DNA of 64,000 nucleotides, taken from NCBI GenBank assembly GCA_019057385.1, contig JAHQJS010000006.1, positions 32,001 to 96,000 of the forward strand. The letters run 5' to 3'. Position 1 is the stretch's first letter. Each line of letters starts with the position of its first letter. This DNA is from Candidatus Borrarchaeum weybense (GTDB lineage: Archaea; Asgardarchaeota; Sifarchaeia; Borrarchaeales; Borrarchaeaceae). Position numbers and translations under genes: made by a program. Of this stretch, positions 21,097 to 51,596 are shown piece after piece. Under the pieces are notes generated by a model. The model had not been told where the DNA came from. It was given only the letters and a program-made list of their open reading frames with translations, and did not search any database.

Positions 21097-21101
21097 GAAC
21101 T

Positions 21102-22391
21102 ATGATATTGCGAGAAAAAAATGCGTTTACATCAGTTGGGGACGAGGTTGTTATTAGAGTGGAAAATGTATCAAAGAAGTTTTCTAAGTCTCTCAAGAGG
21201 TCTATGATCTATGGCATTAAGGATACCATTAAAAATATTTTTAAGTCGTCCGCGAAACCTGATATACTCAGAAAAGGTGAATTCTGGGCAGTAAATAATA
21301 TTTCATTTGAATTAAAAATGGGAGAATGTTTCGGCATTATAGGTCCAAATGGTTCAGGTAAAACAACGCTATTATCAATGTTGAACGGGATTTTTATGCC
21401 TGATACAGGCACGATAACAATAAAAGGAAAAACAGGCGCGTTAATAGCTGTTGGAGCGGGATTTCATCCCATGCTAACAGGTAGGGAAAATATTTACATT
21501 AAAGGTGCCATTATGGGAATGAGCAAAGCTGAACTTGACTCGAAATTTGATACCATAGTTGAATTTGCTGACATAGGCGATTTTCTTGATATGCCCGTAA
21601 AAAACTATAGTTCTGGGATGTTTGTAAGACTAGGTTTCTCTGTTGCAGTACATTGTGAACCGGAAATTCTTTTGATAGATGAAGTACTTTCTGTCGGTGA
21701 TTTGTCTTTTCAAAATAAATGTCTCCAGCGTCTTGATGAACTTAGGGAGAAAACGAATGCTGTGGTGCTTGTTAGTCATAATCTGGAACATGTAAGGACT
21801 TTATGCGATAGAGTATTGGTATTAAATAGTGGAAAGCCTGTGTTTTTAGGAACGTCAACTCAAGCCATCCAAAAATATGAGGAAATCACTCGCGATAAAC
21901 GATTGAAAAATTTGGAGAGGACTGGTGGACTTAGCAGGTATTTATTTTACTCATCTGGAGACATTGAATTTCTAGAAGGGGGGATAATGAATGAGTTAGG
22001 AAAACAAATTGACGCAATATCAATAGATGATGACGTAATCACATTCATAAGATTTCGAGTAAAAAACTCCATAGACACAGCCATAATAGCTATCTCTATA
22101 TTGAACACGCGGCATACACTATGTATTTGGCAGTTCAGTAATGACAAAGATCCGACTAAATTCTACAAATTTGATAGGGGAGAATATCTTGTAAAGGCGA
22201 AATTCAAGAAACCAAGGTTGGCCCCAGGAGTTTACACGATTTCCTATTCCATAAGGGATCAAAAAAGCGGAGAGATATATGAGAAGAATATAGGGTTTGT
22301 TGCTCCATTTAAAGTAACCGGCAAAGCGTTTGAGCGTAGCGTAATTTATGTAGAAAGCGAATGGGATGTAGAAAAGATTAAGATGAACTGA
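21102..22391 (+). CDS. wzt: ABC polysaccharide exporter ATPase with C-terminal Wzt_C-type domain (copy 1)
   Basis: Walker A GPNGSGKT, YSSGM signature, LLIDEVLSVGD, about 170 aa C-terminal extension. Confidence 0.92.
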   Translation: MILREKNAFTSVGDEVVIRVENVSKKFSKSLKRSMIYGIKDTIKNIFKSSAKPDILRKGEFWAVNNISFELKMGECFGIIGPNGSGKTTLLSMLNGIFMPDTGTITIKGKTGALIAVGAGFHPMLTGRENIYIKGAIMGMSKAELDSKFDTIVEFADIGDFLDMPVKNYSSGMFVRLGFSVAVHCEPEILLIDEVLSVGDLSFQNKCLQRLDELREKTNAVVLVSHNLEHVRTLCDRVLVLNSGKPVFLGTSTQAIQKYEEITRDKRLKNLERTGGLSRYLFYSSGDIEFLEGGIMNELGKQIDAISIDDDVITFIRFRVKNSIDTAIIAISILNTRHTLCIWQFSNDKDPTKFYKFDRGEYLVKAKFKKPRLAPGVYTISYSIRDQKSGEIYEKNIGFVAPFKVTGKAFERSVIYVESEWDVEKIKMN

Positions 22392-28755: not shown

Positions 28756-29886
28756 ATGAGAATTACGGACACCACGCTAACTTTGTTTTTCACTCGAAAC
28801 ATGAGTTTGAAGGAGTGGTCGGACATCGGTATTATTGAACGAGAACTTTTGATATACAAGAAACTCTCGATGCATCTGAAGAAAGTCAATATAGTAACAT
28901 ATGGAGGCCGCAAAGACAAATTTTATTCTAGAAAACTTGGGGCTATTAATGTTTTGCCAGTGACATGGCACACTAGGACAACTACCATTCTTCATTTATT
29001 GATGAAATATTATCCTGAAATTAAGAACTCAAGTATATTAAAGACAAATCAGATTTCAGGTTCTGAAATTCCTTTATGGTTCAAAAAGAAATTCGGGAAA
29101 AAATTAATCGTGCGGTGCGGCTATTTATATGCTCAATTCACATTCAAACTGACAAAAGACGAGGCAACGCGTAAGAAGGCCTATAGGTTAGAACGTGATG
29201 CTTTCTCATTTGCTGACGTGGGGATCGTATCATCTCTCAGGGATCGCGAATATGTCTTAGCAGAATATAGGATTAAGCCTGAGAAAATAAAGGTTATACC
29301 AAATTATGTAGCGACTGATATTTTTAGACCGATTCCATCAATCCAAAAAAACTACGATTTAGTTTATGTTGGAAGAGGTGGAGCCCAAAAAAACTTAGAG
29401 AATCTATTAAAAGCGATAAAATATCTCAAAACAGAAAAGCATATACCATCATTGTTGATGATAGGAAACTGCTGTTATGATAGTAAGATCAAGCGAATGA
29501 TAGATAAATATGAGTTAGATGTGGCATTAAATGGTATTATCCCAAATTTTAAACTTCCCCAGATAATTAATCAAGCTAGGATTTTCGTTCTTCCTTCATA
29601 CTTTGAGGGTCACCCTAAAGCATTGCTTGAAGCTATGAGTTGTGGAATACCATGTCTTGGAACTAATGTTACTGGAATAAAGAACGATATTGAACATTTG
29701 GTCACGGGTTATTTGTCCGAGACTGATTTTAAAAGCATTGCAGACTCAATAGGCACACTTTTGTCTGATGAATCACTTCAATTCAAACTTGGCAGAAGAG
29801 CACGAAATTATATCTTAAAAAATTATTCGCTAGATAAGATATTACAAATGGAACTTGAAGTCATAGGAGAGGTACTTGCCTCATGA
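28756..29886 (+). CDS. GT4 glycosyltransferase (module copy 1)
   Basis: LTLFFT...RELLIY, LKTNQ, LPSYFEGHPKALLEAMSCG. ATG 28756 aligns with the start of paralog 53569-54699. Confidence 0.92.
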   Translation: MRITDTTLTLFFTRNMSLKEWSDIGIIERELLIYKKLSMHLKKVNIVTYGGRKDKFYSRKLGAINVLPVTWHTRTTTILHLLMKYYPEIKNSSILKTNQISGSEIPLWFKKKFGKKLIVRCGYLYAQFTFKLTKDEATRKKAYRLERDAFSFADVGIVSSLRDREYVLAEYRIKPEKIKVIPNYVATDIFRPIPSIQKNYDLVYVGRGGAQKNLENLLKAIKYLKTEKHIPSLLMIGNCCYDSKIKRMIDKYELDVALNGIIPNFKLPQIINQARIFVLPSYFEGHPKALLEAMSCGIPCLGTNVTGIKNDIEHLVTGYLSETDFKSIADSIGTLLSDESLQFKLGRRARNYILKNYSLDKILQMELEVIGEVLAS

Positions 29887-30171
29887 ATCTACATAAAATC
29901 TTGTTTAGACCTGTAATGTCCCCTTTAAGCAAATTATCGCTAGAAAAAATGGTATCAATAATTATGCTTATTCTTCAAGAATTGGCATTTTAAGAACATA
30001 TGCATACCAGATATCATATTTGTTTCATTGAAAATATAGCTAATGGCAACATATTTTAGACGTTGTTTGCGGAAATAGCTTTTTAGTGAAATAATATAGT
30101 TGCTAACAAGAGGATCTAGATTATTTGGATAGATCTAAATAGAAATTTGGGTTGTAGTAAAATCAATATAA
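29883..30171 (+). pseudogene. Eroded methyltransferase, paralog of 41973-42737
   Basis: ATGA-coupled start; fragments TRYHICFIENI, HILDVVCGNSF, IDLN, EIWVVVKSI* with stops, frameshifts and large deletions. Confidence 0.8.
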
Positions 30172-30183
30172 GGGATCTAAAAC

Positions 30184-31191
30184 ATGATAAATGAATCAAA
30201 AATCAGTGTAGTAATGTCGGTCTTCAACGGAGAAAAATATCTTGGTGAAGCTGTTGATAGCATCCTAAATCAAACCTTCAAAGATTTTGAATTCATTGTC
30301 ATAAATGATGGCTCTACCGATGGCACACGAGAGATTCTTGAGTCATATAATGATTCACGTATTGTTTTAATTCACCAAGAAAACATAGGGTTAACAAAAT
30401 CCTTAAATAAAGGGATCGCACTGGCAAAAGGAGAATATATTGCACGCCAGGATGCCGATGATATTTCAATGCCCGAAAGACTTGAAAAACAGATCGAATT
30501 CTTAGAAAATCATAAAAATATTGTTCTCCTTGGCACTGCAATAAAATGTATTGACATTAATGGAGTTCATCTCAAAACAGTTAAATACCCACATGACTAT
30601 ACTTCCATCCGGAAGGCCATAAATCGATTTAATTGCTTTTATCATGGTTCAGTAATTTTTAAACGGCACTGTTTTCTTGAACTAGGAGGTTATCGGGAAT
30701 TTTTCATAAAATCACAAGATTACGACTTGTGGCTGAGGTTTGTAGAAAAATTTGAGGCTGCAAATTTATCACTTCCTCTATATAAATACCGTTTCAGCCG
30801 CACTTCTTTTGCGTTTAATAACCTTGTTTCCAAAAAAAGAATGGCAAAATTCGCAAGACAATTGAATAACACAAGAAAGAGTGAGGTTAATAAGCAAAGT
30901 CTCATTCAAGATTTAAAGATTTTTTTTAAATCTCCATTATCATTAGCAGAAAAAAAAGATATACTTCAAATCTACAATCACTGGGCTGAATTGTTGTTAG
31001 TAAATAATATTAAAAAAGAAGCCTTTCTACTGCTTGATGACTCTTTTGAAAATCTCCCTTCTTACCTATACAAATTTCTCTTTAGAATTGTTAAGTTTAC
31101 TCGCTCATCGTTTCTCCTCAGGATGCTTATAAAATTGATTAAAATGTTTTTGATATTGCCAACTCCAAGTTTTTACATATATCTTGTCTAA
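30184..31191 (+). CDS. GT2 glycosyltransferase
   Basis: SVVMSVFNGE, INDGSTD, ARQDADD, QDYDLWLR. Confidence 0.93.
   Translation: MINESKISVVMSVFNGEKYLGEAVDSILNQTFKDFEFIVINDGSTDGTREILESYNDSRIVLIHQENIGLTKSLNKGIALAKGEYIARQDADDISMPERLEKQIEFLENHKNIVLLGTAIKCIDINGVHLKTVKYPHDYTSIRKAINRFNCFYHGSVIFKRHCFLELGGYREFFIKSQDYDLWLRFVEKFEAANLSLPLYKYRFSRTSFAFNNLVSKKRMAKFARQLNNTRKSEVNKQSLIQDLKIFFKSPLSLAEKKDILQIYNHWAELLLVNNIKKEAFLLLDDSFENLPSYLYKFLFRIVKFTRSSFLLRMLIKLIKMFLILPTPSFYIYLV
30259..30508 (+). repeat. 250-bp near-perfect inverted repeat, left copy (partner 41636-41885)
   Basis: Manual alignment gives 248/250 identity; mismatches at 30279 and 30318 are both synonymous C/T. Confidence 0.95.
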
Positions 31192-31229
31192 AGATACCTA
31201 GAATTCATGGGGGTTGTTCGGATGTGTAG

Positions 31230-32219
31230 TTAGTCGAACAATTCCTGTTTAGGGTAAGAATGAATAACGCAAGTATATAATGTGGCTCTACTAAATTTAA
31301 TCTTTTTCGCCTGAAAGTCTCTCTTTATTGCTATGCTTAAATCTCGATTATATGAACGTAAATCAAATTTTCTCTGCTTTAAATGTAAAAAATCCCTATG
31401 AAGGTCAAAAAAGTATTTATGGTGTACAGCATTACAGCTTTTACCTCCGAGAACAAACGTATAACAATTAGAAAAATCTGAATATAATGAGAGCATTCTG
31501 TTAATAGCCTGAAGAGTGTATTGTCGATAACCATGAACTCCATATGATCTTAAGGCCGATACAGGAGGTACAATGTGGATTTGTATGCAGGTATTATGAT
31601 TACGTTTTATTGAATCTCTTAATATAGCAAATAATTGAAGATCATTTCTATAGTGTTCTAAAAAGAAATTACTAATGATTAAATTTGTTTTTTTTGGTAT
31701 CTGTTTAATATTTTCAACATTGGCATTGATGACATTAAAACGAGAGTCTACTGCTCTCAATTTCTCCCATACCGCATAATTTTCCTCATATCCATTGTCG
31801 ATTCCAACATATTGTGAAACCTTTTGCGTCAAATTATCAATCCACTTAAAAAGTAAGCCATTTCCGCAACCTAGTTCAAGGACATGGAGACTGTCAAGCT
31901 CTGTCACAACTTTTTCCCAAGGGAAATAATTCAAAAAAAATCTAGCCATAAGACGCATAGGCGATGCGCGATCTACTTTCTTCTTTGACGGGTATTCATA
32001 ACATTCTGGAATAAAGCGACGCACATCTACTGCATGGTTATAAGAACGTGAAATAATATGATTGCTAATAAGATTAAACGTTATAAAAAAAAGCTTCTCT
32101 ATTTTTCCATGGATATAACAACCGTCTTTGTAAAAACAACGTGTATTCAATCCATCACGTCCATGACTTGATCTAATCCTATCTTTCAAAAGATGAAAGT
32201 TTATACCTATAATAGACAC
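31230..32219 (-). CDS. Class I SAM-dependent methyltransferase
   Basis: VLELGCGNG, YVGID, FLEH. Start position uncertain. Confidence 0.8.
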   Translation of the reverse strand: MSIIGINFHLLKDRIRSSHGRDGLNTRCFYKDGCYIHGKIEKLFFITFNLISNHIISRSYNHAVDVRRFIPECYEYPSKKKVDRASPMRLMARFFLNYFPWEKVVTELDSLHVLELGCGNGLLFKWIDNLTQKVSQYVGIDNGYEENYAVWEKLRAVDSRFNVINANVENIKQIPKKTNLIISNFFLEHYRNDLQLFAILRDSIKRNHNTCIQIHIVPPVSALRSYGVHGYRQYTLQAINRMLSLYSDFSNCYTFVLGGKSCNAVHHKYFFDLHRDFLHLKQRKFDLRSYNRDLSIAIKRDFQAKKIKFSRATLYTCVIHSYPKQELFD

Positions 32220-32406
32220 TGAAATCTGGATTTACCATTCTCCAAATTTCAATAATCCAACTGTCAGCCCTATCAATCATTACCAGAAGTTCCTCAAAAT
32301 GAGGTCTATTTTCTTCTGTTGCAGTCCCGTCGAGATCAGGAGTTACAATCATAATTCTACCACCGAGCTTTAGAATGTGCAGCAATTCTTTTAAGGCCGT
32401 CTTCAT
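32179..32406 (-). pseudogene. Methyltransferase C-terminal fragment
   Basis: ALKELLHILKLGGRIMIVTPD matches the 'E..RVLKPGG' post-motif, but no intact SAM-binding N-terminus lies upstream. Confidence 0.55.
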
Positions 32407-32849
32407 TCAAGGCCGCATTCTTGTTCTTAAAGGCAAGATTTTTAGTTTTTTATATTCGTTTGGATATCTTACAACTTATTCGTGCCTATGTTATCTCATC
32501 CATTGAAGTATAGTTTTAATTTCGTGAATTCCATCGTACGCAAACTATCACATATTCAGATTGTATAGTAAACTATGTCACTTTAAACTCCTTTACTTAA
32601 TAAACAAACTCCCTAAAGAATGGATTGTAAAATTGGTTTGCAAATGTGTTCAATGCGATCAACTTCCTAACAGATTTACGCACAAACTCGCTAAAGATCA
32701 ATTCCTAATCATTATATATTCAAAGGTAAGTTTGAAATTTTTAATATGCATATCATAACTCATTTCACTAGGGATGGTGATAAACAAAAGCTCAATAGTA
32801 ATTCATACTAAGAAGTATCTAAAACATGGTTATTTCCCATTTCAGCAAA

Positions 32850-32861
32850 CCCCCCCCCCCC
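32850..32861. repeat. C12 homopolymer tract
   Basis: 12 consecutive C in an AT-rich intergenic region between divergent genes. Confidence 0.9.
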
Positions 32862-33066
32862 AATTTATATCTGACAAGTCTGAATCGGAGAACTGGCAAT
32901 TTTCTAATTTGTTATATCTGAGAACATTTCTTTTACCTGATTCTGCCGAAAACTAAGGTTTAAATACAAATGTTACTATTTAAGAGCGATTTACAGATAT
33001 TAAAACATTTTATAAAGGATTTTCCGAAAAATTTGGTGGAAAATAACGAGCTTAGTTGGTGAACTT

Positions 33067-33984
33067 ATGCAGAGGGAGCTGAAAGAATTGCAGAATATAT
33101 ATTTGAAGTATTTAGAAGAAGGAAAAATACCTCTACCAAGGATAATCCATGTGGAAACTAGGTCTAAATGTAATGGGTTCTGCAGTTTCTGTCCCGCTTC
33201 AATTAACTCTGATAAGCGTAAGGATCTTTATATGCCAGATGAACTTATTGAAAAGGTTATCGAAGAATTGAGTGAGTTAGATTACCCTAATCGGTTATCA
33301 TTTTATAATAACAATGAGCCTTTTTTAGATAAGCGGATATTCGAAATTGTTAAATTAACTAGGGCGAAACTGCCTAAAGCATATTTAGAATTAAAGTCAA
33401 ATGGTACAGTATTAACGACCCAAAAAATCATTAGAATATTCAATGCCGGACTCGATATGCTTTACATTAATGATTATTCAAATAATAACCAGTTTAGGAA
33501 AAACGTCAAACAAATAATTGAAGATCTAAAACAGATAAGACGTTTTAAGGGTCATTTAGAGGAAAATCAGTATTTCAGCAGAATTAAAATTAAACTTAGA
33601 GATTTAAATGCTGTTTTAGGAACCAGAGCAGGAACAAGTCCCAACAAGCCATACAAGAAACCTCCCATGCAAAAAGTATGTTTTCGTTCTTTTGAGATGA
33701 TGGTCATAAATCCCGAGGGTGATGTTACTGTTTGTAGTGAAGATTTTTATCACAGTATAAACATGGGGAATATCAAAAAACAAACTTTATTTGAAATTTG
33801 GACATCTAAGGAATGGAATAATCTCAGGGGCAAATTAATTATTGGTGACCGTTTATGTACAGATGCTTGCTCAAAATGTGACTTTATGGGTTTTTCTCGT
33901 GAAATATTAAAGGAACACGAACTTTACAAAAAATATTCTAAGTTAGGAAAATTAAAAGCGTTTTATGATTCCTTATTCAATTAA
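33067..33984 (+). CDS. Radical SAM protein with SPASM/twitch domain
   Basis: CNGFCSFC, NEPFLD, SNG; C-terminal CFRSF...GDVTVCSED...GNI...CSKC. Confidence 0.9.
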   Translation: MQRELKELQNIYLKYLEEGKIPLPRIIHVETRSKCNGFCSFCPASINSDKRKDLYMPDELIEKVIEELSELDYPNRLSFYNNNEPFLDKRIFEIVKLTRAKLPKAYLELKSNGTVLTTQKIIRIFNAGLDMLYINDYSNNNQFRKNVKQIIEDLKQIRRFKGHLEENQYFSRIKIKLRDLNAVLGTRAGTSPNKPYKKPPMQKVCFRSFEMMVINPEGDVTVCSEDFYHSINMGNIKKQTLFEIWTSKEWNNLRGKLIIGDRLCTDACSKCDFMGFSREILKEHELYKKYSKLGKLKAFYDSLFN

Positions 33985-33997
33985 ATATTGAAACTGA

Positions 33998-34978
33998 GTG
34001 AGTATGTCGCAAAAAATATTATTTGCAGTAATAGGTACATCCGGCATAGCCTCAGACCATATAAGAGCTCTACAAAATTCTCCTAAGGCTGATGTAGTTT
34101 TCATTTACAGTCGAGATATTGACAGATCCATGCAATTTGCAGAGGGTTTTGGGTTGACCCCTGTCAAGTTATATGAGGAGATTTTAAATGATAAAACAAT
34201 CGACGCCGTAGATATTGTGACAGAACCTAGCAGACATGCTAAACTTGCATTAGAAGCTATAAAATATGGGAAACATGTTTTAATTGAGAAACCGTTAGAC
34301 ACCGATATCACATTAGCTGAAAAATTGATGGTAGAGGCTGAAAAATCCCCCAAAATAACAAGCGTAATATCACAAAAGCGTTTTGAACCAACTATAAAGT
34401 CCATGAAAGAAGAACTTGAAAGAGGGTCAATAGGACGACCATATTTAGCAGAAGTTAAATTATTGTGGGAAAGAACCAACGAATATTATCGTCACGGTAA
34501 CGGATGGAGGAGTACTTTAGGCAACGTCTTAATCAATCAGGCTATACATTGGATCGATATTGGGCTCTGGTTTTTTGGTCTCCCAAATAAAGTGCAATCA
34601 TTAACTACAAAAGTTAAAGAAAGCATATCTTGTTATGATACTGCAATATGCTGCCTGAAATTTACCAGAAATGTTTTGTTTAATCTAGTTTGCTCTACTG
34701 CTGTTCAGAAGAGTCAACCAGAAGAATTCAGAATATATGGAACAAAAGGTATCCTCGATTATAATGTGCGAAAGAACTCAAAGTTAAGGAACAAATTCTC
34801 CATACTAAATAAGGCAATCAGTTTTCTAAATCCGATTAAAAGTCCTCTCCAATGCCAGATAGATGAGTTTGTCGATTCAATAATCAGTAAAAAATCTCCA
34901 TTGGTTTCTGTTAAAGATGCTTATGCTGCCTTGAAAATAGCAAAAATTTGCGAAGAAGAGAACGTAGCAAAGAAATAA
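33998..34978 (+). CDS. Gfo/Idh/MocA family oxidoreductase
   Basis: VIGTSGIA, HVLIEKP, NQAIHWID. Confidence 0.9.
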   Translation: MSMSQKILFAVIGTSGIASDHIRALQNSPKADVVFIYSRDIDRSMQFAEGFGLTPVKLYEEILNDKTIDAVDIVTEPSRHAKLALEAIKYGKHVLIEKPLDTDITLAEKLMVEAEKSPKITSVISQKRFEPTIKSMKEELERGSIGRPYLAEVKLLWERTNEYYRHGNGWRSTLGNVLINQAIHWIDIGLWFFGLPNKVQSLTTKVKESISCYDTAICCLKFTRNVLFNLVCSTAVQKSQPEEFRIYGTKGILDYNVRKNSKLRNKFSILNKAISFLNPIKSPLQCQIDEFVDSIISKKSPLVSVKDAYAALKIAKICEEENVAKK

Positions 34979-35155
34979 AAGGACTGAAATATAAAAAAAT
35001 AACAATTTTTAAAGCCCTTAAAGAAGTTTTTGAAATCAATATTATCATTTACTAATGAAAACCAACTGAATCGATTTATCGAGTGAAATAAACTACGGAA
35101 ATCAATTTAAAATGTAAATCATCATTTTCTTAGATTTCTAAGTTCACTTAAAGCG

Positions 35156-36421
35156 CTATTGGGATTTTTCATCGTATTCAGTACGCCTTGCTTCCATCAT
35201 TTTTATCATATCTGATAAAAATCCAAAGAGGACTAACTGAAGACTTGAAATGATAAGTGTGGCTACCAAGACTACAGAACCTATCCCGAAAAGCCTTCCT
35301 GTTCTTAATGTTTCAAATAATACATAAAGACCATAAATCAATCCAGTTAAGAAAAATACGAGTCCGGTAAAACTGAATAAGTAAATACCTCTATGAAAAT
35401 AGAGTTTCCTTTGTGTTCCACGAAAGAGTATAGTAAGTACTCTTAAGATGTATTTAGGCAGATTAATATAGGACTTCCTTGTCCCATAAATAGTTTTAAC
35501 TGGAACGAATTTAACTTGCACTCCCTTTACACTGCATTCGATCAGGATGTCATTTGGAATTCCCCAGCGATCTGAAAGAAATTCCAGATTAATCCTTTTT
35601 AGCGCATCTCTCGAAATTGCTGTATATCCACATTGAGAGTCCTTAACGTCATAATCTGTAATTGCACTTGTTAAAAAACTGAGAAATCTATTTCCAATAT
35701 ATCTAAAATGTGGCATTCCCTTTTCTACTGGACGTCCACTCAGTCTCTCTCCAACCACATAATCAGCATCTCCTCTTACAATAGGTTCAATAACTGTGGA
35801 AATTTCCGTTGGATCATGTTGACCATCACCTGCAACTACTATGGCAATATCGTCATTATTTCGTAGTGCTTCTTTGTAACCTGTTTTAATACTTGCGCCA
35901 ACACCTCTATTCTTTACATGACGAATAACGGAAGTAGCACCTGCTGCCAAGGCTTCTCCTGCAGTATTATCTGTGCTATGGTCATCTATGACAATGATGT
36001 CTTGAACGATATCTTTAGGTATCTTCTTTACCACTTTGCCAATTCTGCCTTCTTCATTGTATGCAGGAATGGCTACTGCAATTTTTAGACGTCTTTGTGA
36101 TGTCATAACCTTTTGAAATTCCTTTGCCACAAGTTCTTTCTCTGGCGCTCTCTTTTTTCTATAAATTAATCTTTTAACCCCGCCTGCTAGGAACAGTACG
36201 ACGCCTACAATAAATGAAATCCAAGCTACTGCAGCAAAATATGCTAAAAAGCCAAATGAACTAAGATAAAGGAGTGGCCAAGTAAGTAAAAAGTTCAGAT
36301 AACCAAAATAAAATTGAATGTGACTAAGAATGAAGAAGAGTATAGCGGCAAGTCCAAAAATAATGATACATATAATTGAAAGCATAAATGCAATGATACT
36401 TAAAAACCATAATTTTGACAT
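35156..36421 (-). CDS. DPM1-like GT2 (polyprenol-phosphate glycosyltransferase) with N- and C-terminal TM helices
   Basis: IPAYNEE, DDHSTD, NRGVG, GDGQHDP, DSQCGY. Confidence 0.88.
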   Translation of the reverse strand: MSKLWFLSIIAFMLSIICIIIFGLAAILFFILSHIQFYFGYLNFLLTWPLLYLSSFGFLAYFAAVAWISFIVGVVLFLAGGVKRLIYRKKRAPEKELVAKEFQKVMTSQRRLKIAVAIPAYNEEGRIGKVVKKIPKDIVQDIIVIDDHSTDNTAGEALAAGATSVIRHVKNRGVGASIKTGYKEALRNNDDIAIVVAGDGQHDPTEISTVIEPIVRGDADYVVGERLSGRPVEKGMPHFRYIGNRFLSFLTSAITDYDVKDSQCGYTAISRDALKRINLEFLSDRWGIPNDILIECSVKGVQVKFVPVKTIYGTRKSYINLPKYILRVLTILFRGTQRKLYFHRGIYLFSFTGLVFFLTGLIYGLYVLFETLRTGRLFGIGSVVLVATLIISSLQLVLFGFLSDMIKMMEARRTEYDEKSQ

Positions 36422-36571
36422 TTAGCTAACCCTTTCTATTCAACTCTCCTGTCATACTCACATATTCGTGACCCACTTAACTCCTTAGCACTAATTTAAG
36501 TGTTTTGTAAAGAATTCTGAAAATAACGGTTTATACCTCTAAAACTTCATGTGAGTTACATAAGACTTCTT

Positions 36572-38314
36572 CTACGTGCTGAATTCGAATATTATCATAC
36601 CTGCAGTTCTATAAATTTCTTTAAAATAGTTATTTGCCTTAATTAGTTGCGCAACGGCGTCGATTTCCAAGACGATATAGTTAATGTTATTTTGAGAGCA
36701 AAATATTGCCAGTTCTGATGGAGCAAGATCATAAAGGCTTTGGTTTAAGATAATGCTTCTAGGATATAAAATAGAATAATATGGATGAGAATCTTCGCTT
36801 AATACCAAGATTACTGCATTTTCAGGGGAATTATCACATAGCCAAAGAGCAGCCGCTACATCTTCAGATCTGTGATACCTAGAAATGGTTGTATGGTATC
36901 CTACTACCATTCCAAAATAAATCTGATACACTAAACACATTACAATAAAAAAGTGAAGCATGTAAGATTTTATATTGCCTTTTTGATTTAGAGGCGTTAA
37001 AACCTTACCGAATGCTTTTATCGTACTCCATAAACCTTGTGCGGCTAAAGTAGACGCAAAAACAGAGAAAACGGGATAAATCCTTATGTTCATCCACCAA
37101 TATGGTAAATTGATAAAGTTAATTAGAATGAATGAATATAAAAAACACATTGGATAAAACATTCGTTCAGATGAGCGATTTAAAAGAAAATAGATTACTC
37201 CAATAAATGAGAACGCTAAACTATAGCCAAATGTCCAGTATGAATTTGTGTAAGAATTATGAAAAAACGAAATATTTGCACTAAAGGTACTAGATAAAAT
37301 ATAACTCAAAATTGTTTGAGTAAAATTCGGCAGAAGTAAACCTGCACTAATTATTGATAAAACTGTCATAACTGAAATTCTATAAGGTTTAGTTAATACA
37401 ATATAAAGAAGCGCTGGTACTACAACTGGTCCAAAACAACTAAAGCTGATTAACCCTAACCCTAGTATGGTCAGCAGTCCAAGAATTTCTGCTTTCAGAT
37501 CTTTTTCGATAATAAATAGGGCTAAAACTGCAATTAGAAACAATCCAACTGATTCTGTAATATAGATTTTCCCCCTCCAAATTACTAATTGTGAGGTCCC
37601 ATAAACAAGGACTGAGTAGATAGCGAACTTATCTGAATTAAGAAGTTTTTTGGAAGCAGTATATACCCCTAGACATTGTAAAAAATATAGAAATGTCCCT
37701 ATATAAAATACTATATAATAAGAATTTATCAAATTAGGCAGAATCATCAATGCTAAAAAATATGCCGCTCCACGTGGGAACCATCCCAAATAGTCATACT
37801 CCCAAGATCCAGTTTCGGCTTGAATATGCCCAGTTACCGCTATCTTCTTACTTTCAATGAGCCAGAACCATGGATCCCTCGCAGGCAAAACGATGCTCTT
37901 TAATAAATCATTTAATATGAAAAATACAATGAAGCATAAAACTAATAGTAGAAGTACATTCGATGTATTTATTTTACTAACTTTTAATTTGATAAGTAGA
38001 TCTTTCCCTACATCCCTTTTGAGTTTATGTCTTACATTTTTTAATAAATGAAAAATATCTTTGTGATAAAGTAGAATTACAAGACATGGAAATGGTAGAA
38101 TGGATGTTGTCAACGTTACTAAGTTAATGATTAAAAATTCATCTAGAAGATAACTAACTATTACTAAATAACTGATTCCTATCCCTATTGCTAGAATAAA
38201 TAGTTCTAGGGTTTCGTATCTTTTGAGATCTCGATATAAAATGCTCAATATAGAAAGTCCTGGAATAGTTGTGATGCCTATAAACCAAACAAGAAGTAAT
38301 ATGATATTAATCAA
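36572..38314 (-). CDS. Polytopic membrane protein, GT-C-like
   Basis: RDPW, FPRG, about 12 TM helices; C-terminal WLCDNSPENAVIL...NINYIV domain. Confidence 0.65.
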   Translation of the reverse strand: MINIILLLVWFIGITTIPGLSILSILYRDLKRYETLELFILAIGIGISYLVIVSYLLDEFLIINLVTLTTSILPFPCLVILLYHKDIFHLLKNVRHKLKRDVGKDLLIKLKVSKINTSNVLLLLVLCFIVFFILNDLLKSIVLPARDPWFWLIESKKIAVTGHIQAETGSWEYDYLGWFPRGAAYFLALMILPNLINSYYIVFYIGTFLYFLQCLGVYTASKKLLNSDKFAIYSVLVYGTSQLVIWRGKIYITESVGLFLIAVLALFIIEKDLKAEILGLLTILGLGLISFSCFGPVVVPALLYIVLTKPYRISVMTVLSIISAGLLLPNFTQTILSYILSSTFSANISFFHNSYTNSYWTFGYSLAFSFIGVIYFLLNRSSERMFYPMCFLYSFILINFINLPYWWMNIRIYPVFSVFASTLAAQGLWSTIKAFGKVLTPLNQKGNIKSYMLHFFIVMCLVYQIYFGMVVGYHTTISRYHRSEDVAAALWLCDNSPENAVILVLSEDSHPYYSILYPRSIILNQSLYDLAPSELAIFCSQNNINYIVLEIDAVAQLIKANNYFKEIYRTAGMIIFEFST

Positions 38315-38736
38315 ACTTGAACCTCTTTAATGCCGTATCAAATCCAGTTTACAGACTTTTTCCATGCAGACGAGAAGAATCCGCAAGTTTGCACATCTTC
38401 CTTCATAAATTGGTTTTAAATATTTCCTCTTTCAACCTAAAGAGGATTTTTCTAACTTTTGATACGATTTAAAATATCGAGAATTAACAGTATCAAACAA
38501 AATAACAAATCTTCACGTTTTTGTAAAGATAAATAGTTGTCCAATAGCATTCTGGTTTCTTCTTTTTAATGTTTCATCCATTAGACATTCATTAAGGTAT
38601 ATTAAATGTGTACTATGGTATTTTTTTCTTGTATAAAGAAATAATGCAAAAGTTGTTTTTTTTCCTTCTAAGAAAATAGAGAGTTCCAATTCGACATATA
38701 ATTCAGCAAACTGCTTGAATATTGTCTCCTATTAAG

Positions 38737-39723
38737 TCAAATATCGTGTATTATGCCTCTAATGAATCCAAGAGACCAGCCAAAAAATTCTACAACAAAG
38801 ATGAGCACTAAAAATAAAAAAAACTTACGATTTAGATTATTTTGAATAACTAAATGTGTTGAAAACGCCAAAATTACAAGGAAATAAGTCATAATCGCGC
38901 CTAAAACTACGATGAAAAGAATGTGCCAATTAAATGCCAATACTATTAGTATTATTATTGAAATCAATTCTAAAGAGGGGAGTATGTGTATCCATTCTAT
39001 TAATTTTGTATTCTTTTTGGCTAATTGAGCTCTTCCTATTGCATATCTGAATATTTGTCTGAAAAATGCTCGTGGTGTAGCTCTATGATAATGAAAAACC
39101 TTTGCAGAAGGAATATACAATATTTTGTAGCCTTGTCCCCTAAGTCTTTGATTCAATTCTGCATCTTCTGCCGTTATCAAACTCTCATTAAATAGTCCAA
39201 TTTCATTGAAGATATCTTTATAATAGGCCGCGTTGCAACCAGGAGCACTCTTAACGTATTTATTTCCTCTTAAGACCTTAGTATGGGTAGACGTACCTCC
39301 TCCCAAAGGGGTCGATAATGCAAGTCCAACCGCTTTAGAAAAATTATCTAAGTCTGGCGGGATGGTATTTGGACCCGTTGCGCAAACAATGCCTTTATTT
39401 CTATCTAATGCTAAAACCAAATCATCTAACCAATTTTTTTCAACTATGCAATCACCATCTGTAAAGGCAATTATGTCACCTTCTGCAATCTTAATTCCTT
39501 CATTACATGCCCCCGCTCGCGTTCCCTTATTCTCATAAATTATCCTTATGTCATATTTGGATGCAATGCGTATAGTATCATCTGTTGAATGTCCATCTAC
39601 GATTATTACTTCTTTTTTTGAATAATTCAAATTGAATATGGACTTTAAACAATTTTCTATTGTTCTCTCATTATTTTTTGTTGGTAAGATAATGCTCACA
39701 AGGGGATTTTTGAAAACATCCAC
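38737..39723 (-). CDS. GT2 glycosyltransferase with C-terminal TM helices
   Basis: VDGHSTD, FTDGDC, AEDAELNQR, QIFRY. Confidence 0.9.
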   Translation of the reverse strand: MDVFKNPLVSIILPTKNNERTIENCLKSIFNLNYSKKEVIIVDGHSTDDTIRIASKYDIRIIYENKGTRAGACNEGIKIAEGDIIAFTDGDCIVEKNWLDDLVLALDRNKGIVCATGPNTIPPDLDNFSKAVGLALSTPLGGGTSTHTKVLRGNKYVKSAPGCNAAYYKDIFNEIGLFNESLITAEDAELNQRLRGQGYKILYIPSAKVFHYHRATPRAFFRQIFRYAIGRAQLAKKNTKLIEWIHILPSLELISIIILIVLAFNWHILFIVVLGAIMTYFLVILAFSTHLVIQNNLNRKFFLFLVLIFVVEFFGWSLGFIRGIIHDI

Positions 39724-39919
39724 TTTTTTCCAATCCTAAATATTCCAATTAAAGAATCGTTAATACACATTTCCAAAATATTGTTTTCGTTCCGCTACTT
39801 ATATTTGTAGAAGAATGATCATTTTTCCATAGAATTAAATTCATATATCATCCGTCAGCCCCTTCGGCTCTATTAGGACTCGATTATAACATTACCACAT
39901 GAATTAGTTTGATATTTGT

Positions 39920-39987
39920 ACCGTTCCTTTCATTATAGACATCTCTTACAGAGTGACTATTTGAATATTAACAGTTACACACCCTAG
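39920..39987 (-). repeat. Short intergenic sequence homologous to the flanks and right end of the 51.6-51.9 kb element
   Basis: GTAAGAGATGTCTATAATGAAAGGAACGGT matches 51899-51928 with one mismatch; CTAGGGTGTGTAACTGTTAA resembles 51551-51570. Confidence 0.75.
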
Positions 39988-39997
39988 ATGCTCATCT

Positions 39998-40741
39998 CTA
40001 TTTACAAAAAGCAATTCCAATATTTCTAAAAATCCAATAGTTCAAGTGATGTCTTTCACAAAAAATTAGAAAAGCATTCTTCAGAAAAGGTAAACTTACA
40101 ACATCATGCGATGATAGTACTCCATTTTGATTTACATGTTTAAAAGCTATATTATATTCCCAATACATGTGCTCTAATGTATGAAGACTATCATGAAAAA
40201 AGAGGTCTATGTGACTTAGCTGATTTAGCAATTTAGGGAGTAACACGGTGCTATCCCCGATAATTAATTCCCACCTATCTAAGGCTGCTTCTCGAACAAG
40301 AAAACCTTTAGGCGGCATATTTGGATCATGAGGGAGATCGATACTATATAATTTACCGGATCCGTTTTTCTTTATTGCCTCAAGGATATGAGAACTGGAT
40401 GCACCGTATAAAGTACCTGTTTCAACGACAATACTTGGCTTTAGTGCCCGGACTAATAAATATAGAGTTTCGCAATCAAAATTGAAAGTTGTGTCACTAC
40501 TGTGTCCAATCATTTTAATCAATTCAGATTTCTTAGAATCATACCAGGATTTAAATTCCGAATTAAGATATGCGGAATAAAAGGTCTTTGCGTCAACATC
40601 AAAATTTGTAGATAAAAACTCTAAGAAATTAGCACGTTCTTTGGTGTCTGGAGTTCTTTGTTCGATTAAAAGTTTATATAATTTTGTAAGCACCTGAGTT
40701 GGATACCTGATCGATTTCAATAGTAGTTTATGGTTTTTCAT
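39998..40741 (-). CDS. Class I SAM-dependent methyltransferase (Methyltransf_24-like)
   Basis: VVETGTLYGASS, LYSIDLP, IGDS, FHDSLH, HDV. Confidence 0.88.
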   Translation of the reverse strand: MKNHKLLLKSIRYPTQVLTKLYKLLIEQRTPDTKERANFLEFLSTNFDVDAKTFYSAYLNSEFKSWYDSKKSELIKMIGHSSDTTFNFDCETLYLLVRALKPSIVVETGTLYGASSSHILEAIKKNGSGKLYSIDLPHDPNMPPKGFLVREAALDRWELIIGDSTVLLPKLLNQLSHIDLFFHDSLHTLEHMYWEYNIAFKHVNQNGVLSSHDVVSLPFLKNAFLIFCERHHLNYWIFRNIGIAFCK

Positions 40742-40979
40742 TTTTTTTAACTACTTCCATATTCTAACGTCCCCATATTTACAAGATCTGGGGCGCAAAA
40801 TATCTTACAGAGATCTATATCAATTTTTTTCAAAATTGTCCATTGTTTTTTAATTCACAAATCACTTTTTATTTTTCGTTTTAAGAGATTATTTCTGACA
40901 TTAAATCAACATATAATTAGTTTAAAGACTTTTGATAAGAAATCGAAACTAACCACAGAGTACCATGCTTTTTTTCTTC

Positions 40980-41960
40980 TTACTTTCCTACAAAAAAGAG
41001 AAATCGAAGTCGTATAAGTATCTTTAGGAGAACCGATATCTGAAAAATCTTTATAATTCTAAAGAGTAATTTGTAGAGGTTTGATGGATGGTATTTAACT
41101 CCTTCAGCCATCAGTGTAAAAGCGTCGTTTTTTTTATGTTGTCTTAACAATAGAAAACTCCAATAGTTATAACGGCGAAATATTGCTTTTTTTTCAAAAG
41201 AGGATAATGGTGTTTCCAAGAACTGTTGTAGATCTTTAGTAAGTGCCTTTTCACTAATTCCCTTCTCTCTTGCAAAAGCTAATCGCCTTGCAAATATTCC
41301 CATTCTCCTTTGAACAGCAATTTTTTTGTAAGTAAAAGAATGGACGCTTAAACGACGTATATATAAAGGAGTTGATAGATTCGCGGCTTCAAAGTTTTCA
41401 ACAAATCTCAACCATAGATCGTAATCCTGTGTTGTAAAAAAAATCTCTCTGTAACCTCCCACTTCAAAAAAAGACTGCCGCTTAAATATTACTGAACCAT
41501 GACAGAAAAGATTATCTTGTTTTATAATTTTCTGGATGGAAGAATAATCACATGGATATTTTCTCGTGTGGATATATGCACCTCTTCCGTCTATAATTTT
41601 AACTGCAGTACCAATCAGGGCCAGATTATTATGACTTTCTAAGAATTCGATCTGTTTTTCAAGTCTTTCGGGCATTGAAATATCATCGGCATCCTGGCGT
41701 GCAATATATTCTCCTTTTGCCAGTGCGATCCCTTTATTTAAGGATTTTGTTAACCCTATGTTTTCTTGGTGAATTAAAACAATACGTGAATCATTATATG
41801 ACTCAAGAATCTCTCGTGTGCCATCAGTAGAGCCATCATTTATGACAATGAATTCAAAATCTTTAAAGGTTTGATTTAGGATGCTGGCAATAGCTATACG
41901 GAGATATTTTTCGTTGTTGTAGACAGGCATCACTACGCTAACTTTGGGTACATGTTCCAT
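40980..41960 (-). CDS. GT2 glycosyltransferase (paralog of 30184-31191)
   Basis: VSVVMPVYNNE, INDGSTD, ARQDADD, QDYDLWLR. Confidence 0.93.
   Translation of the reverse strand: MEHVPKVSVVMPVYNNEKYLRIAIASILNQTFKDFEFIVINDGSTDGTREILESYNDSRIVLIHQENIGLTKSLNKGIALAKGEYIARQDADDISMPERLEKQIEFLESHNNLALIGTAVKIIDGRGAYIHTRKYPCDYSSIQKIIKQDNLFCHGSVIFKRQSFFEVGGYREIFFTTQDYDLWLRFVENFEAANLSTPLYIRRLSVHSFTYKKIAVQRRMGIFARRLAFAREKGISEKALTKDLQQFLETPLSSFEKKAIFRRYNYWSFLLLRQHKKNDAFTLMAEGVKYHPSNLYKLLFRIIKIFQISVLLKILIRLRFLFFVGK
41636..41885 (-). repeat. 250-bp near-perfect inverted repeat, right copy (partner 30259-30508)
   Basis: Reverse complement of 30259-30508 with 2 mismatches. Confidence 0.95.
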
Positions 41961-41972
41961 TACTTCTAACCC

Positions 41973-42737
41973 TTATATTGGTTTTACTACAGCCCAAATT
42001 TCTCCCCAGCGAATTTCATACGTTTCTGCCTTTAATTCTGCCCGTTCTAGTTCTTCAAAAAATGTTTCCTGTGTATACTCAATATAATGTGTACGATCCA
42101 ATCGATAGTCCAGCCCTAGTTCCTTCATCAGGGGCACCCGCCAGTCACGCTCAAAAAGTGGAACTCTTAGAAGATATTTGTCTGAACCAATTCTATTCTT
42201 AAGCTGCTTTAGGAATTTAACGCGATGTTCAATGTGTTCTAGAACATTTGACAATATTATTATATCGAATTTTTTGTCTGGTAGATCCGTCAAGGCGTTT
42301 CCCACTATGAATGTCAAATTTGGGTGTTTATAGTATTTCTTTGCGAATTCAATATAGTTCTTATTTAAATCAATACCTAACAATTTAACATTCTTCACAT
42401 TAGTGACAATGTCATACGATAAAAAACCATTTCCACAGCCTAAATCTAAAATGTGGTCGCTATCATTTATATTTTTGATAAAAAAATTATGATATCTAGT
42501 AAGCCTATGTTTTACATGTAAGCCGTCTCCATAGCGTTTTGATTCCCGTCCTGTTAACGAATATATTACTCGGTCTAATTGCAACAACAATCTTAGTGAA
42601 TCAGAGGGCTTTTTTTCTGATGATAGCAATATTTTGATAATAAGTGTGATTACTGATACTTTCTTGTTACTTGATATTTCACCTAATTTGGGTAAACTAG
42701 ATGCTATTATTCTTAACAAAACTTTAAATGAATTCAT
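41973..42737 (-). CDS. Class I SAM-dependent methyltransferase (only intact copy of three)
   Basis: ILDLGCGNG, LGIDLN, SNVLEHI. Confidence 0.9.
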   Translation of the reverse strand: MNSFKVLLRIIASSLPKLGEISSNKKVSVITLIIKILLSSEKKPSDSLRLLLQLDRVIYSLTGRESKRYGDGLHVKHRLTRYHNFFIKNINDSDHILDLGCGNGFLSYDIVTNVKNVKLLGIDLNKNYIEFAKKYYKHPNLTFIVGNALTDLPDKKFDIIILSNVLEHIEHRVKFLKQLKNRIGSDKYLLRVPLFERDWRVPLMKELGLDYRLDRTHYIEYTQETFFEELERAELKAETYEIRWGEIWAVVKPI

Positions 42738-43045
42738 GAAGCAAGAACCTCTTTAATGGCTTCAATCTCCATATATAATACATTATCCAAAGAATATTTT
42801 GTTAAAATATAATTTCTAGCATTTCTGCCAAGCTTATTCTGAAGCGACTCATCGAACATAAGTGTCTCTATCGTTTCTGCAATACTCTTGAAGTCAGTTT
42901 TGCAGAAATAACCTGTTACTAAATGTTCAATATCTTTTCTTATACCTGCAACATTCGTTCCAATACAGGATAAGCCACAACTCATGGCTTCAAGCAATAC
43001 TTTTTTAGTGAAAAATAATGTCAGTATTGTGTCAATAAGTTTCAT
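42734..43045 (-). pseudogene. GT4 with in-frame internal deletion (module copy 2)
   Basis: MKLIDTILTLFFTKK is joined directly to VLLEAMSCG; about 270 codons present in paralogs 28756 and 53569 are missing. Confidence 0.85.
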
Positions 43046-49119: not shown

Positions 49120-50430
49120 TTAATCAATGAATTCCATTTTCCATTCACTTTTGGTATGTACTAGTCCTCTTGGAATGGCATCTCCTTCAATGATAAACGG
49201 TTTTAAATCAGATATTCTTTCATAAATCTCATTGGTAATCCCATTTCTTATGCTGAAAATCATAGAATATACTCCAGGAACTAAACTGGGTGTTAAGAAC
49301 TTCACAATTAACCTGTATTTACCTTTCAAAATATTACTAAATCTGATTTTATCGTACTCATTACTTATATGCCATATACAGTTGTTAACATTCATTGATT
49401 CAGCCCTAATTGCAACTGAAAAGTAAAGTTCCTCGAAATGCTTAGTTGTTTCAAACTCAAAGAATGTTATAAGTGGTTTTTCAACTTTAATTTTTTCAGT
49501 TAAGTTCCCAAATTCATCCAAAATTCCCGCGTCACCAAAAATGAAGTCTCCAGATGATATACGTACACCAGGAAGGACCATCTGTTTTTTGTTTTTGATA
49601 TCTGTAAGGCTTCTCTCCCTTGCCATTTCATGATATTTTGATAAAGCTTCGTGAGTCTTTCCCAGGAAAACTTGTTTGCCATTGTTGAGTATCAACACTC
49701 TGTCGCACAATTGTCTTATATGCCCTAAATTATGGCTGACGAAAACTATTGCGTAGGCATTTTCTAAAACTTGACTTACTCGACGCAAACTTTTATTTTG
49801 AAAAGCCAAATCACCAACAGATAAAACTTCATCGATTAATAATACTTCAGGTTCGCAATGCACAGCAACAGAGAAGCCTAATCTTACAAACATCCCAGAA
49901 CTATAGTTTTTCACTGGTGAATCAAGAAAATCACCGATATCTGCAAACTTAACGATATCATCAAATTTCTCCTCAATTTCTTCCTTACTCATGCCCAGTA
50001 TAGCACCGTTTATATAGATGTTTTCTCTTCCTGTTAGCATGGGATGAAACCCTGCCCCAACGGCTATCAGTGCACCAGTTTTGCCTTTTATAGTGATTTT
50101 TCCTTTATCCGGCATATAAATCCCGTTCATTATTGATAAAAGCGATGTTTTACCAGCACCGTTAGGACCGATAATTCCGAGACATTCACCTTTTTTCACC
50201 TCAAAAGATACATCATTTAGAGCCCAGAATTCATCTTTTCTAAGTATGTCAGGCTTTGCGGACATCCGCAAAATATTTCTGATAGTGTCTTTTATGCCAT
50301 AGGCCATGGACCGCCTGAGTGACCTAGAAAACTTCTTTGAAACATTTTCAGCTTTGATGACAACCTCATCATTTTCTGAGAAAATTTCATCATCATCTTT
50401 TAAGACTAAAATTCTATATCCGCTCCGCAA
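49120..50430 (-). CDS. wzt: ABC polysaccharide exporter ATPase with C-terminal Wzt_C-type domain (copy 2)
   Basis: GPNGAGKT, YSSGM, LLIDEVLSVGD; paralog of 21102-22391. Start uncertain. Confidence 0.92.
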   Translation of the reverse strand: MRSGYRILVLKDDDEIFSENDEVVIKAENVSKKFSRSLRRSMAYGIKDTIRNILRMSAKPDILRKDEFWALNDVSFEVKKGECLGIIGPNGAGKTSLLSIMNGIYMPDKGKITIKGKTGALIAVGAGFHPMLTGRENIYINGAILGMSKEEIEEKFDDIVKFADIGDFLDSPVKNYSSGMFVRLGFSVAVHCEPEVLLIDEVLSVGDLAFQNKSLRRVSQVLENAYAIVFVSHNLGHIRQLCDRVLILNNGKQVFLGKTHEALSKYHEMARERSLTDIKNKKQMVLPGVRISSGDFIFGDAGILDEFGNLTEKIKVEKPLITFFEFETTKHFEELYFSVAIRAESMNVNNCIWHISNEYDKIRFSNILKGKYRLIVKFLTPSLVPGVYSMIFSIRNGITNEIYERISDLKPFIIEGDAIPRGLVHTKSEWKMEFID

Positions 50431-51265
50431 TTCTTGTTTCTGCTAGATGAAAGGACATCCAACAGAAGAAAAAGACGAATACCGAAAGGCCACAGGAGAT
50501 AAAATAGCTTAAGGGATGACTTAAAGTTCCAGTCAGGGCAATCTCCCTCGGTCCTATAGAAAGATAATACAAGGGGTTGATGCGAGCCAATGTAACTACA
50601 AAGCCACTTTCGGGAAGTTCATAAGCTATGGGAGTAATGAACAATAAAAAGGTTAAGCCAAGGGTAAGTATGCGTCCCAAATCTCTTATGATGCCATTTA
50701 TAATTGAGCAGATGAAGCCTAGGCCACAGCTCAATAATAATATGGGAACAGCCATCAGTGGAAACATCACAAATTGCCAGTGAGGAATGAAATTATAAAC
50801 TCCAAACAAAATAAACACTGCTCCCAGTTGAAACAAAAACGAGATGATGGTATTCCCAAATGTAGCAAAGACTAAGGCTTCCCGTGGAAAATTAATCTTT
50901 TTAAGCATCCCACCAGCACTTACAAGCGAATTGGTACTCTGAACTAGCCCGGTGACAAATAATTGCCAGAAGGACAACCCAAGGAGTGCGTAGATCACAT
51001 AAGGTACCTCTATAGCTCCCACACTAAAAAATCCGGAGCTTCTCAACACTATAAAGGTAGCAAGCGTTACCAGCGGTATGATAAGCGCCCAGGCGACACC
51101 TAAGATTGATTGTCCATATTGTCCTTTAAAGTCCCTGACAAACAGTTGCTGGATTAACCAGTTGCTTTCTTTCGTATTGTGGAATATTTCTTTCCAGAGA
51201 ATTCTATAACCTCTTTTTATTGATTGTTCTGGCTCATATACTGTTATATTTTCTTCTTTGACCAT
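50414..51265 (-). CDS. wzm: ABC-2 polysaccharide exporter permease (copy 2)
   Basis: Full-length paralog of 20245-21096 (both end ETRIAERI). ATG 51265 aligns with the paralog start. Confidence 0.9.
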   Translation of the reverse strand: MVKEENITVYEPEQSIKRGYRILWKEIFHNTKESNWLIQQLFVRDFKGQYGQSILGVAWALIIPLVTLATFIVLRSSGFFSVGAIEVPYVIYALLGLSFWQLFVTGLVQSTNSLVSAGGMLKKINFPREALVFATFGNTIISFLFQLGAVFILFGVYNFIPHWQFVMFPLMAVPILLLSCGLGFICSIINGIIRDLGRILTLGLTFLLFITPIAYELPESGFVVTLARINPLYYLSIGPREIALTGTLSHPLSYFISCGLSVFVFFFCWMSFHLAETRIAERI

Positions 51266-51596
51266 AACAACTAACCACATGTACTCTATTATAAAACTGA
51301 AGGCATTTAAATTCTGTTTGTATCTGTTTTTGCCCTTCTTAAAATTTTTTGTTAACAGATCTAGTAATTATTTTATAATTATAACTGCAAATTATTTACT
51401 CTTCATAAATCTGTGGAGCTGAATATATTTTATAAATTAAAATGGCGATTTAGATAACTCTTTAGAATTCCTCAACAAGTTTGGATGGCATTCTATCATG
51501 GAAGAGGACTTTCGGTAGTTAAAACTTTTATTTGATGAGAATGCTGAATACTAGGGTATATAACAGTTAACATATTTATAGGCATATATCGTTTTA

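Follow-up and report, generated by a model that had tools for sequence, protein, structure and literature searches.

Two inverted glycosyltransferase genes share a near-identical tract

The 64-kb stretch of DNA analysed here (the window, equal to C6:32-96 kb, C6 being one of the assembly contigs) belongs to Candidatus Borrarchaeum weybense, and its source is a metagenome-assembled genome of the Promethearchaeota (Asgard), whose 8 contigs total 4.18 Mb and whose marker contamination is 7%. All coordinates refer to the window unless they are prefixed by a contig. The window carries two converging Wzm/Wzt glycan-export operons, A and B, and this report concerns two family-2 glycosyltransferase (GT2) genes, GT2a and GT2b, each of which lies in its own gene block behind its own wzm-wzt pair, together with a 250-bp tract that the two genes hold in common in opposite orientation:

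30184..31191, + strand: GT2a, family-2 glycosyltransferase of 335 aa, last gene of the plus-strand block (PF00535, E=1.3e-36)
40980..41960, - strand: GT2b, family-2 glycosyltransferase of 326 aa, within the minus-strand block (PF00535, E=1.1e-40)
30259..30508, + strand: tract copy A, covering codons 26-108 of GT2a; 248/250 identity with the reverse complement of 41636-41885
41636..41885, - strand: tract copy B, codons 26-108 of GT2b, 248/250 identical to copy A; shared Logan contig 41636-41864, depth 57 in run X1

Both gene products match Pfam family PF00535 above the gathering score, and the DxD-type motif of GT2 enzymes is present in both as QDADD at residues 89-93. The two genes lie on the same contig, 11 kb apart, and are diverged homologues, with about 70% DNA identity and about 50% protein identity outside the tract. 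Specifically, the protein identity of GT2a and GT2b is 63% overall, 100% over residues 26-108, 52% over residues 1-25 and 50% over residues 109-324.

In a base-by-base comparison, the two tract copies disagree (C vs T) at 2 of 250 positions, 30279 and 30318, and the longest stretch without a mismatch measures 190 nt. Both mismatches are synonymous, all 83 codons specifying the same residue and two of them differing between the copies. In each gene the tract begins 75 nt downstream of the ATG, so that the codon phase is shared, and its borders are sharp; the 30-nt windows flanking it contain 15-25 matches. The protein that it encodes runs from SILNQTFKDFEFIVINDGSTDGT to ARQDADDIS...QIEFLE and comprises the nucleotide-sugar-binding half of the enzyme, from NDGSTDGT to QDADD. 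A previous sequence-only reading of this DNA had reported a 99% identical inverted repeat at these positions, with two synonymous mismatches, clear divergence of the genes on both sides and a coding content spanning the nucleotide-sugar-binding half (DGSTD to DADD); our comparison agrees with it on each of these points.

The identity of the tract exceeds chance and protein constraint

The tract region is the most conserved of the whole family, with database homologs showing 80-94% amino-acid identity here and 50-57% in the C-terminal half, and a control comparison of the same 83 codons was therefore needed. The control set consisted of these codons in two other paralogs of the genome (C4:257755 and C6:107163) and in three genes of same-genus genomes. 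Non-orthologous pairs of this set showed 74-78% nucleotide identity, with 25-35 synonymous differences among 61-69 conserved codons, compared to 99.2% nucleotide identity and 2 synonymous differences for GT2a vs GT2b. When the 251 mismatches of the gene alignment were permuted, none of 100,000 permutations reached a perfect run of 190 nt (maximum, 62), and the binomial probability of finding at most 2 mismatches in 250 nt at 78.3% identity is 7e-24. The near-identity is contiguous, extends to synonymous sites and lies above what chance and protein constraint account for.

On this comparison, neither selection at the protein level nor a family-wide element at the nucleotide level can explain the tract, because the control pairs carry their many synonymous differences at the very same codons. 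In addition, among the four GT2 paralogs, the tract is common to the GT2a/GT2b pair only. The two further paralogs, which belong to the same family, map to C4:257755-258659 and C6:107163-108149 and show 72% and 69% nucleotide identity to GT2a, respectively.

A young tract within an old inverted duplication

A repeat finder placed the tract inside a longer inverted homology of 991 nt (30141-31131 and 41013-42003, about 75% identity), and related sequences were also detected beyond the two GT2 genes:

29617..29936, + strand: arm A of the older duplication, 3' end of a 381-aa GT4 gene, 75% identical to 42684-43003
29995..30170, + strand: decayed methyltransferase remnant in the arm-A spacer (sequence comparison with arm B)
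42684..43003, - strand: arm B of the older duplication, comprising a 103-aa C-terminal GT4 remnant (42734-43045) and the start of a 254-aa methyltransferase gene (repeat finder and sequence comparison)

Specifically, positions 30141-30170 of arm A are identical at 28 of 30 positions to the last codons of the arm-B methyltransferase gene (41973-42003), and positions 29995-30085 of arm A are about 75% identical to positions 42420-42511 of arm B. These alignments indicate that the GT2 pair belongs to an old, diverged inverted duplication made up of the GT4 3' end, the methyltransferase and the GT2 gene. Because the arms carry decayed GT4 and methyltransferase remnants, the GT2 paralogs are, on the same grounds, to be regarded as ancient and the 250-bp tract as a young overlay.

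The exporter genes of the two operons show a comparable arrangement:

20245..22391, + strand: wzm-wzt exporter of operon A (Pfam ABC2_membrane; ABC_tran plus Wzt_C)
49120..51280, - strand: wzm-wzt exporter of operon B (Pfam ABC2_membrane; ABC_tran plus Wzt_C)

They are inverted with respect to each other and share 75% nucleotide identity across 1529 nt (20197-21722 and 49789-51315). The mirror centre of the exporter pair falls at about 35,756 and that of the GT2 pair at about 36,072, both pairs being 75% identical at the nucleotide level. The two operons thus mirror each other approximately, an arrangement which suggests that operons A and B may derive from one ancient inverted duplication of the whole export operon, diversified later by gene replacement. 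As regards other loci of this type, the ortholog of the C4 GT2 copy in the genome G004 lies about 16 kb downstream of a wzm-wzt pair (G004:C124), and the picture suggests that the source genome may hold further Wzm/Wzt-type glycan loci.

Raw reads hold the tract twice

Read evidence was drawn from four runs of one sediment-metagenome study (X1 to X4) that hold the locus, in the form of Logan contigs built with k=31; X1 may be the source sample of the assembly. Three of the four tract borders have an X1 contig terminus k-1 bases (30 nt) inside them, namely contig ends at 30309 and 41665 and a contig start at 30479, the end at 30309 corresponding to the mismatch site 30279 plus 30. A shared 229-nt contig of the same run (41636-41864, equivalent to 30280-30508) ends beside the mismatch at 41865, and its depth is 57.2, vs 32.2, 31.1 and 26.4 for the flanking contigs. 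All four flanks of the tract were recovered at 100% identity in at least one run, and no diverged alternative to the tract was seen among the Logan contigs of the runs holding the locus. The raw reads hold the tract twice, joined to different flanks, independently of the assembly. Since the tract borders interrupt the X1 contigs and the piece in common shows double depth, both collapse of a repeat and mis-polishing are rejected; a collapsed-repeat artefact was one of the outcomes that the sequence-only reading had named as fatal to its proposal, and the contig borders and depths speak against it.

Gene conversion as the most probable origin of the tract

All together, these data indicate that the tract probably arose fairly recently, by gene conversion between the ancient inverted GT2 paralogs, a reading to which we assign a rough probability of 0.8. 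The identity of the two copies points to a non-reciprocal transfer, because two reciprocal crossovers would swap sequence without homogenising it. As the mechanism, we infer conversion by general recombination: homologous recombination, of the RadA type in an archaeon, would have overwritten about 250 bp of one GT2 paralog with the sequence of the other. The tract coincides with the region of greatest prior similarity between the paralogs (about 78%, vs 64-70% in the neighbouring codons), and a heteroduplex is presumably best tolerated in such a region. The resulting 229-250 bp of identity could now serve as a substrate for occasional crossovers, with inversion of the 11.1-kb core as a by-product and not as a programmed switch. 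By analogy with known systems, the segment may have been flipped by the very event that formed the tract, and infrequent inversions would be expected.

The general recombination machinery is present in the genome, with two RadA/Rad51 genes and homologs of MutS and NucS; no Pfam match to the Hjc resolvase was found in the genome. The two RadA/Rad51 genes are full-length (314-aa open frames, C7:360700-361416 and C5:107472-108188) and share 88% identity over the matched Rad51-domain translation and 78.5% at the DNA level. They may be true paralogs; alternatively, their presence may mean that two related organisms are mixed in the bin, whose contamination is 7%.

Several points weigh against this interpretation. 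No orthologs of GT2a or GT2b were found in the four same-genus genomes searched, so that donor and recipient look alike and there is no basis for dating the event or for inferring recurrent conversion; donor inference from family alignments gave no signal. The source is, moreover, a metagenome-assembled genome with marker contamination as given above. The outer flank of copy B (41865-45385) is without an X1 contig and is seen in X2-X4 only, which cover it at 100% identity, X1 covering the rest at about 31x; one long contig may have been lost to the contig filter, or else the sample resembling the source is different there. Lastly, the double-depth X1 contig reads C at 41745, a position at which both assembly copies have T (A at 30399), and the true differences between the two tract copies may not match the assembly exactly at this site (41745 = 30399).

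Other identity islands and strain variants

At least four other same-contig paralog pairs of this genome contain identity islands, 166-895 nt in length and 99.6-100% identical:

C6:72250/115694, direct orientation: identity island of 252 nt, copies 43 kb apart
C7:450102/451719: identity island, same-contig paralog pair
C6:815014/816742: identity island, same-contig paralog pair
C4:480098/481899: identity island, homologous on one flank only

The homologous flanks of these islands are mostly 50-90% identical. Inter-contig pairs were left uncounted, as the bin, with its 7% contamination, could include a second organism. Direct-oriented pairs bear the same footprint as the GT2 pair; the footprint is therefore independent of any function in inversion, and its presence in several other paralog pairs suggests that conversion helps to shape gene families in this lineage.

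A second tract of this kind lies between the two GT2 genes:

40250..40501, - strand: second conversion-like tract, 252 nt with 1 mismatch, in the Methyltransf_24 gene inside the segment; partner C6:115694-115945, outside the window; Logan contig borders at 40279 and 40472

The k=31 contig that both copies of this Methyltransf_24 tract share has a depth of just 35 in X1, vs 20-32 for its flanks, and the second copy is therefore seemingly not equally abundant in that run.

Strain variants were also observed at the locus. In X2, a variant of the region 39992-40120 carries four single-nucleotide polymorphisms (SNPs), at 40022, 40048, 40051 and 40079, each of them agreeing with the paralog at C6:115436-115563. 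The variant contig has unlike sequence to the left of 39992, which is the site of a 67-bp mini-element, and it may represent either a further conversion patch or an allele without the mini-element. In each of the four runs, contigs terminate or diverge at 39920, 39951 and 39960 and leave numerous distinct loose ends, and the region 39920-39960 shows a 41-nt match (90%) to 51888-51928; loose ends and match fit a multi-copy mini-element. In X3, a single contig with a depth of 4.7 carries 10 SNPs within 90 nt (42399-42488) of the 254-aa methyltransferase gene. No convincing match of this cluster to any paralog of the genome was found, and it may be a recombination import from another strain.

Possible inversion of the core and the remaining alternatives

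A crossover between the two tract copies would act on the following segment:

30509..41635, no strand: segment invertible by a crossover in the tract, 11,127 bp (open reading frames and Pfam; the inversion itself was not observed)
Content of the segment: 3' parts of GT2a and GT2b; 329-aa methyltransferase (- strand); radical SAM/SPASM enzyme (+ strand); GFO/IDH/MocA oxidoreductase (+ strand)
Further content: 421-aa GT2 (- strand); 580-aa protein of unknown function (- strand); 328-aa GT2 (- strand); 247-aa Methyltransf_24 protein (- strand)

From the reading frames, such a crossover would give in-frame chimeras and would break no gene. The sequence-only reading had correctly drawn the geometry of a crossover that inverts this core of about 11.1 kb; for its suggestion that the core may be an invertible segment, no second orientation was demonstrated in our data.

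A first alternative is that the segment is a functional one: general recombination between the tracts would flip the 11.1-kb core at appreciable frequency, so that the GT2 bodies would change Wzm/Wzt operon together with the four glycan genes downstream, and surface-glycan heterogeneity would result, in the manner of Campylobacter fetus sap. The repeats are inverted, share the same codon phase and are long enough for homologous recombination, and up to about half of the tufA/tufB recombination events involve inversion of the DNA in between, according to Hughes 2000 (cited in PMC5485169 and PMC6735719). The predicted consequences at the protein level are small, since the chimeras would equal the parental enzymes save for 12 differences within residues 1-25. 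With residues 26-108 identical and the chimeras near-parental, no new acceptor specificity is expected. The shufflon-like glycan switch that the sequence-only reading had envisaged, with an exchange of GT2 C-termini, thus loses its basis, since it is the upstream context that would be swapped and not new enzymes that would be made.

The effect of an inversion would be purely positional and would concern the operon membership of the GT2 bodies and of the four downstream genes. After inversion, the GT2b body, the Methyltransf_24 gene, the 328-aa GT2, the 580-aa unknown and the 421-aa GT2 would stand behind operon A, and the GT2a body would stand behind the arm-B methyltransferase. Whether expression would change depends on promoters in the spacers of 150-420 nt. 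Both GT2 genes lie in expressed-looking operons, which argues against any on/off logic, and no single promoter with silent cassettes, through which an inversion would alter the expressed variant, is apparent from the sequence; what the pair does display are inverted paralogs with a shared 5' part and divergent 3' parts. Neither a tyrosine nor a serine recombinase (Phage_integrase, PF00589; Resolvase, PF00239) was found within 570 kb of the locus, the nearest lying at C6:664-676 kb, which bears out the earlier statement that the window holds no site-specific recombinase. No dedicated recombinase accompanies the element, and its repeat is not a short specific one; it is a 250-bp coding homology inside the diverged inverted homology of 991 nt.

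One contig of X4 (437 nt, depth 3.5) appears recombinant, as it reads from the outer flank of GT2b through the tract into the inner flank of GT2a. Specifically, it consists of the reverse complement of 41978-41827 (the GT2b start, with the allele at 41865) followed by 30318-30602, with the GT2a allele at 30318, the remaining tract and 94 nt specific to GT2a, the joint being 30318/41827 on opposite strands. This contig was considered as evidence for a second orientation and rejected, because a de Bruijn graph with k=31 is identical for both orientations: the exact repeat of 190-229 nt is far longer than k, and the distinguishing sites are 39 nt apart, which also exceeds k. In X4 the competing branches are uncovered (depth 0 at 40948-41581 and 0.67 at 29536-30169), so that a contig passing through the repeat is equally likely under either orientation.

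Chimeric GT2 alleles, full-length or fragmentary, for which the sequence-only reading had called, were looked for in the protein collection and none was found. The 90% clusters of GT2a and GT2b contain the proteins of this contig only, the next full-length match being 66% identical and the best fragment 72-80%. The four same-genus genomes hold orthologs of a different paralog only (C4:257755, about 94% nucleotide identity), and the synteny around the two G004 copies is too unlike for an inversion to be scored. The restriction of the tract to one pair of the four GT2 paralogs, and the similar-sized tracts in direct-oriented pairs, where inversion is impossible, further speak against a functional segment, which we regard as quite improbable. 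That the core exists in both orientations at measurable frequency, flipped by RadA-dependent crossovers, with the four glycan genes and the GT2 bodies driven alternately by either Wzm/Wzt operon, is unlikely; a selected, recombinase-independent glycan switch, for which the geometry is the sole argument, is similarly doubtful. If this were true, the archaeal lineage nearest to the eukaryotes would possess a switch of its surface glycans that needs no recombinase. Where the sequence-only reading had held gene conversion and the switch to be equally good accounts, conversion is supported here and the parity is not.

As a second alternative, both genes could have independently taken the same segment from another strain or species by recombination. 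Strains do vary at the locus, as the SNP clusters of X2 (40022-40079) and X3 (42399-42488) show, and the four X2 letters agree with a paralog. An independent import requires, however, that two events had borders agreeing to within one base at either end, and across the tract region no database protein exceeds 94% amino-acid identity; one event within the genome is the more parsimonious account, and the import is very unlikely.

An assembly or polishing artefact, in which the reads of one paralog corrected the other or a repeat was collapsed or misjoined, would be conceivable in a metagenome-assembled genome with a tract of about 250 nt, a length within the read-length range, and the disagreement at 41745 could be taken in its favour. 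The contig ends 30 nt inside three of the four borders (30309, 30479 and 41665), the end of the shared piece at 41864, the depth of 57 against flanks at about 31, the perfect flanks and the absence of a diverged alternative among the contigs leave little room for it, and we hold its probability to be minimal. Nucleotide-level selection on an embedded element (RNA or binding site) that holds the copies identical is hardly credible, since nothing but the identity itself speaks for it and the synonymous divergence at the same codons in two other paralogs and three same-genus genes implies that the family is under no nucleotide-level constraint in this region.

Gene conversion thus remains our preferred explanation, and the tract would represent direct sequence evidence of ectopic homologous recombination between diverged paralogs in a large glycan locus, rich in paralogs, of a Promethearchaeota (Asgard) genome. 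It also identifies a site at which the chromosome can undergo inversion harmlessly, a point of relevance when synteny and assemblies of such genomes are interpreted. Taken alone, it reveals neither a new mechanism nor a glycan switch.

Comparison with known systems

Invertons typically use short inverted repeats and an invertase. They are defined, including the intragenic ones, by reads in both orientations, and they have barely been explored in archaea, with 12 putative cases in 42 archaeal data sets (Chanin et al., 10.1101/2023.03.11.532203). As in intragenic invertons, the inverted repeats of the GT2 pair lie within coding sequence and could recode proteins upon inversion. Unlike in invertons, the repeat is a 250-bp homology between paralogs, no invertase lies nearby and the k=31 contigs are blind to orientation.

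In Campylobacter fetus, the sap locus is said to undergo inversion between opposed S-layer gene homologs with conserved 5' regions, in a largely recA-dependent manner, according to work by Dworkin and Blaser from 1996-97. A single promoter resides on the invertible sap segment, and homologous inversion acts as an expression switch among several cassettes. The GT2 pair resembles this system in its inverted paralogs with a conserved 5' part and divergent 3' parts, in that a crossover would exchange the 3' parts and in that no dedicated invertase is needed. It differs in that each GT2 gene has its own operon context, the tract is confined to two of the four paralogs, the chimeric enzymes would be almost unchanged and no inversion was seen.

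Recombination between tufA and tufB was reportedly described by Abdulkarim and Hughes in 1996. These inverted paralogs of Salmonella enterica undergo concerted evolution by homologous recombination (PMC5485169; PMC6735719), with contiguous conversion tracts and a branch-migration walk averaging about 500 nt (Paulsson et al. 2017, PMC5485169). Quoting Hughes 2000, these papers give an exchange rate of about 1e-5 to 1e-6 per generation and report that, of the selected events, up to about half come with inversion of the intervening DNA (PMC5485169; Brandis et al. 2019, PMC6735719). Conversion and inversion co-occur in this system and thus arise from a single intermediate with two possible outcomes. 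Across their full length, the tuf genes share about 99% identity, maintained under strong selection by repeated conversion, whereas the GT2 pair is about 70% identical and bears a single isolated tract; in addition, the GT2 genes belong to an archaeon with RadA and not RecA, are separated by 11 kb and not 760 kb, and no inversion between them was observed. The two systems have in common inverse paralogs on one chromosome and contiguous tracts of some hundred bases, in the GT2 pair probably non-reciprocal, that arise without a site-specific recombinase, and in both the intervening DNA could invert in the same events.

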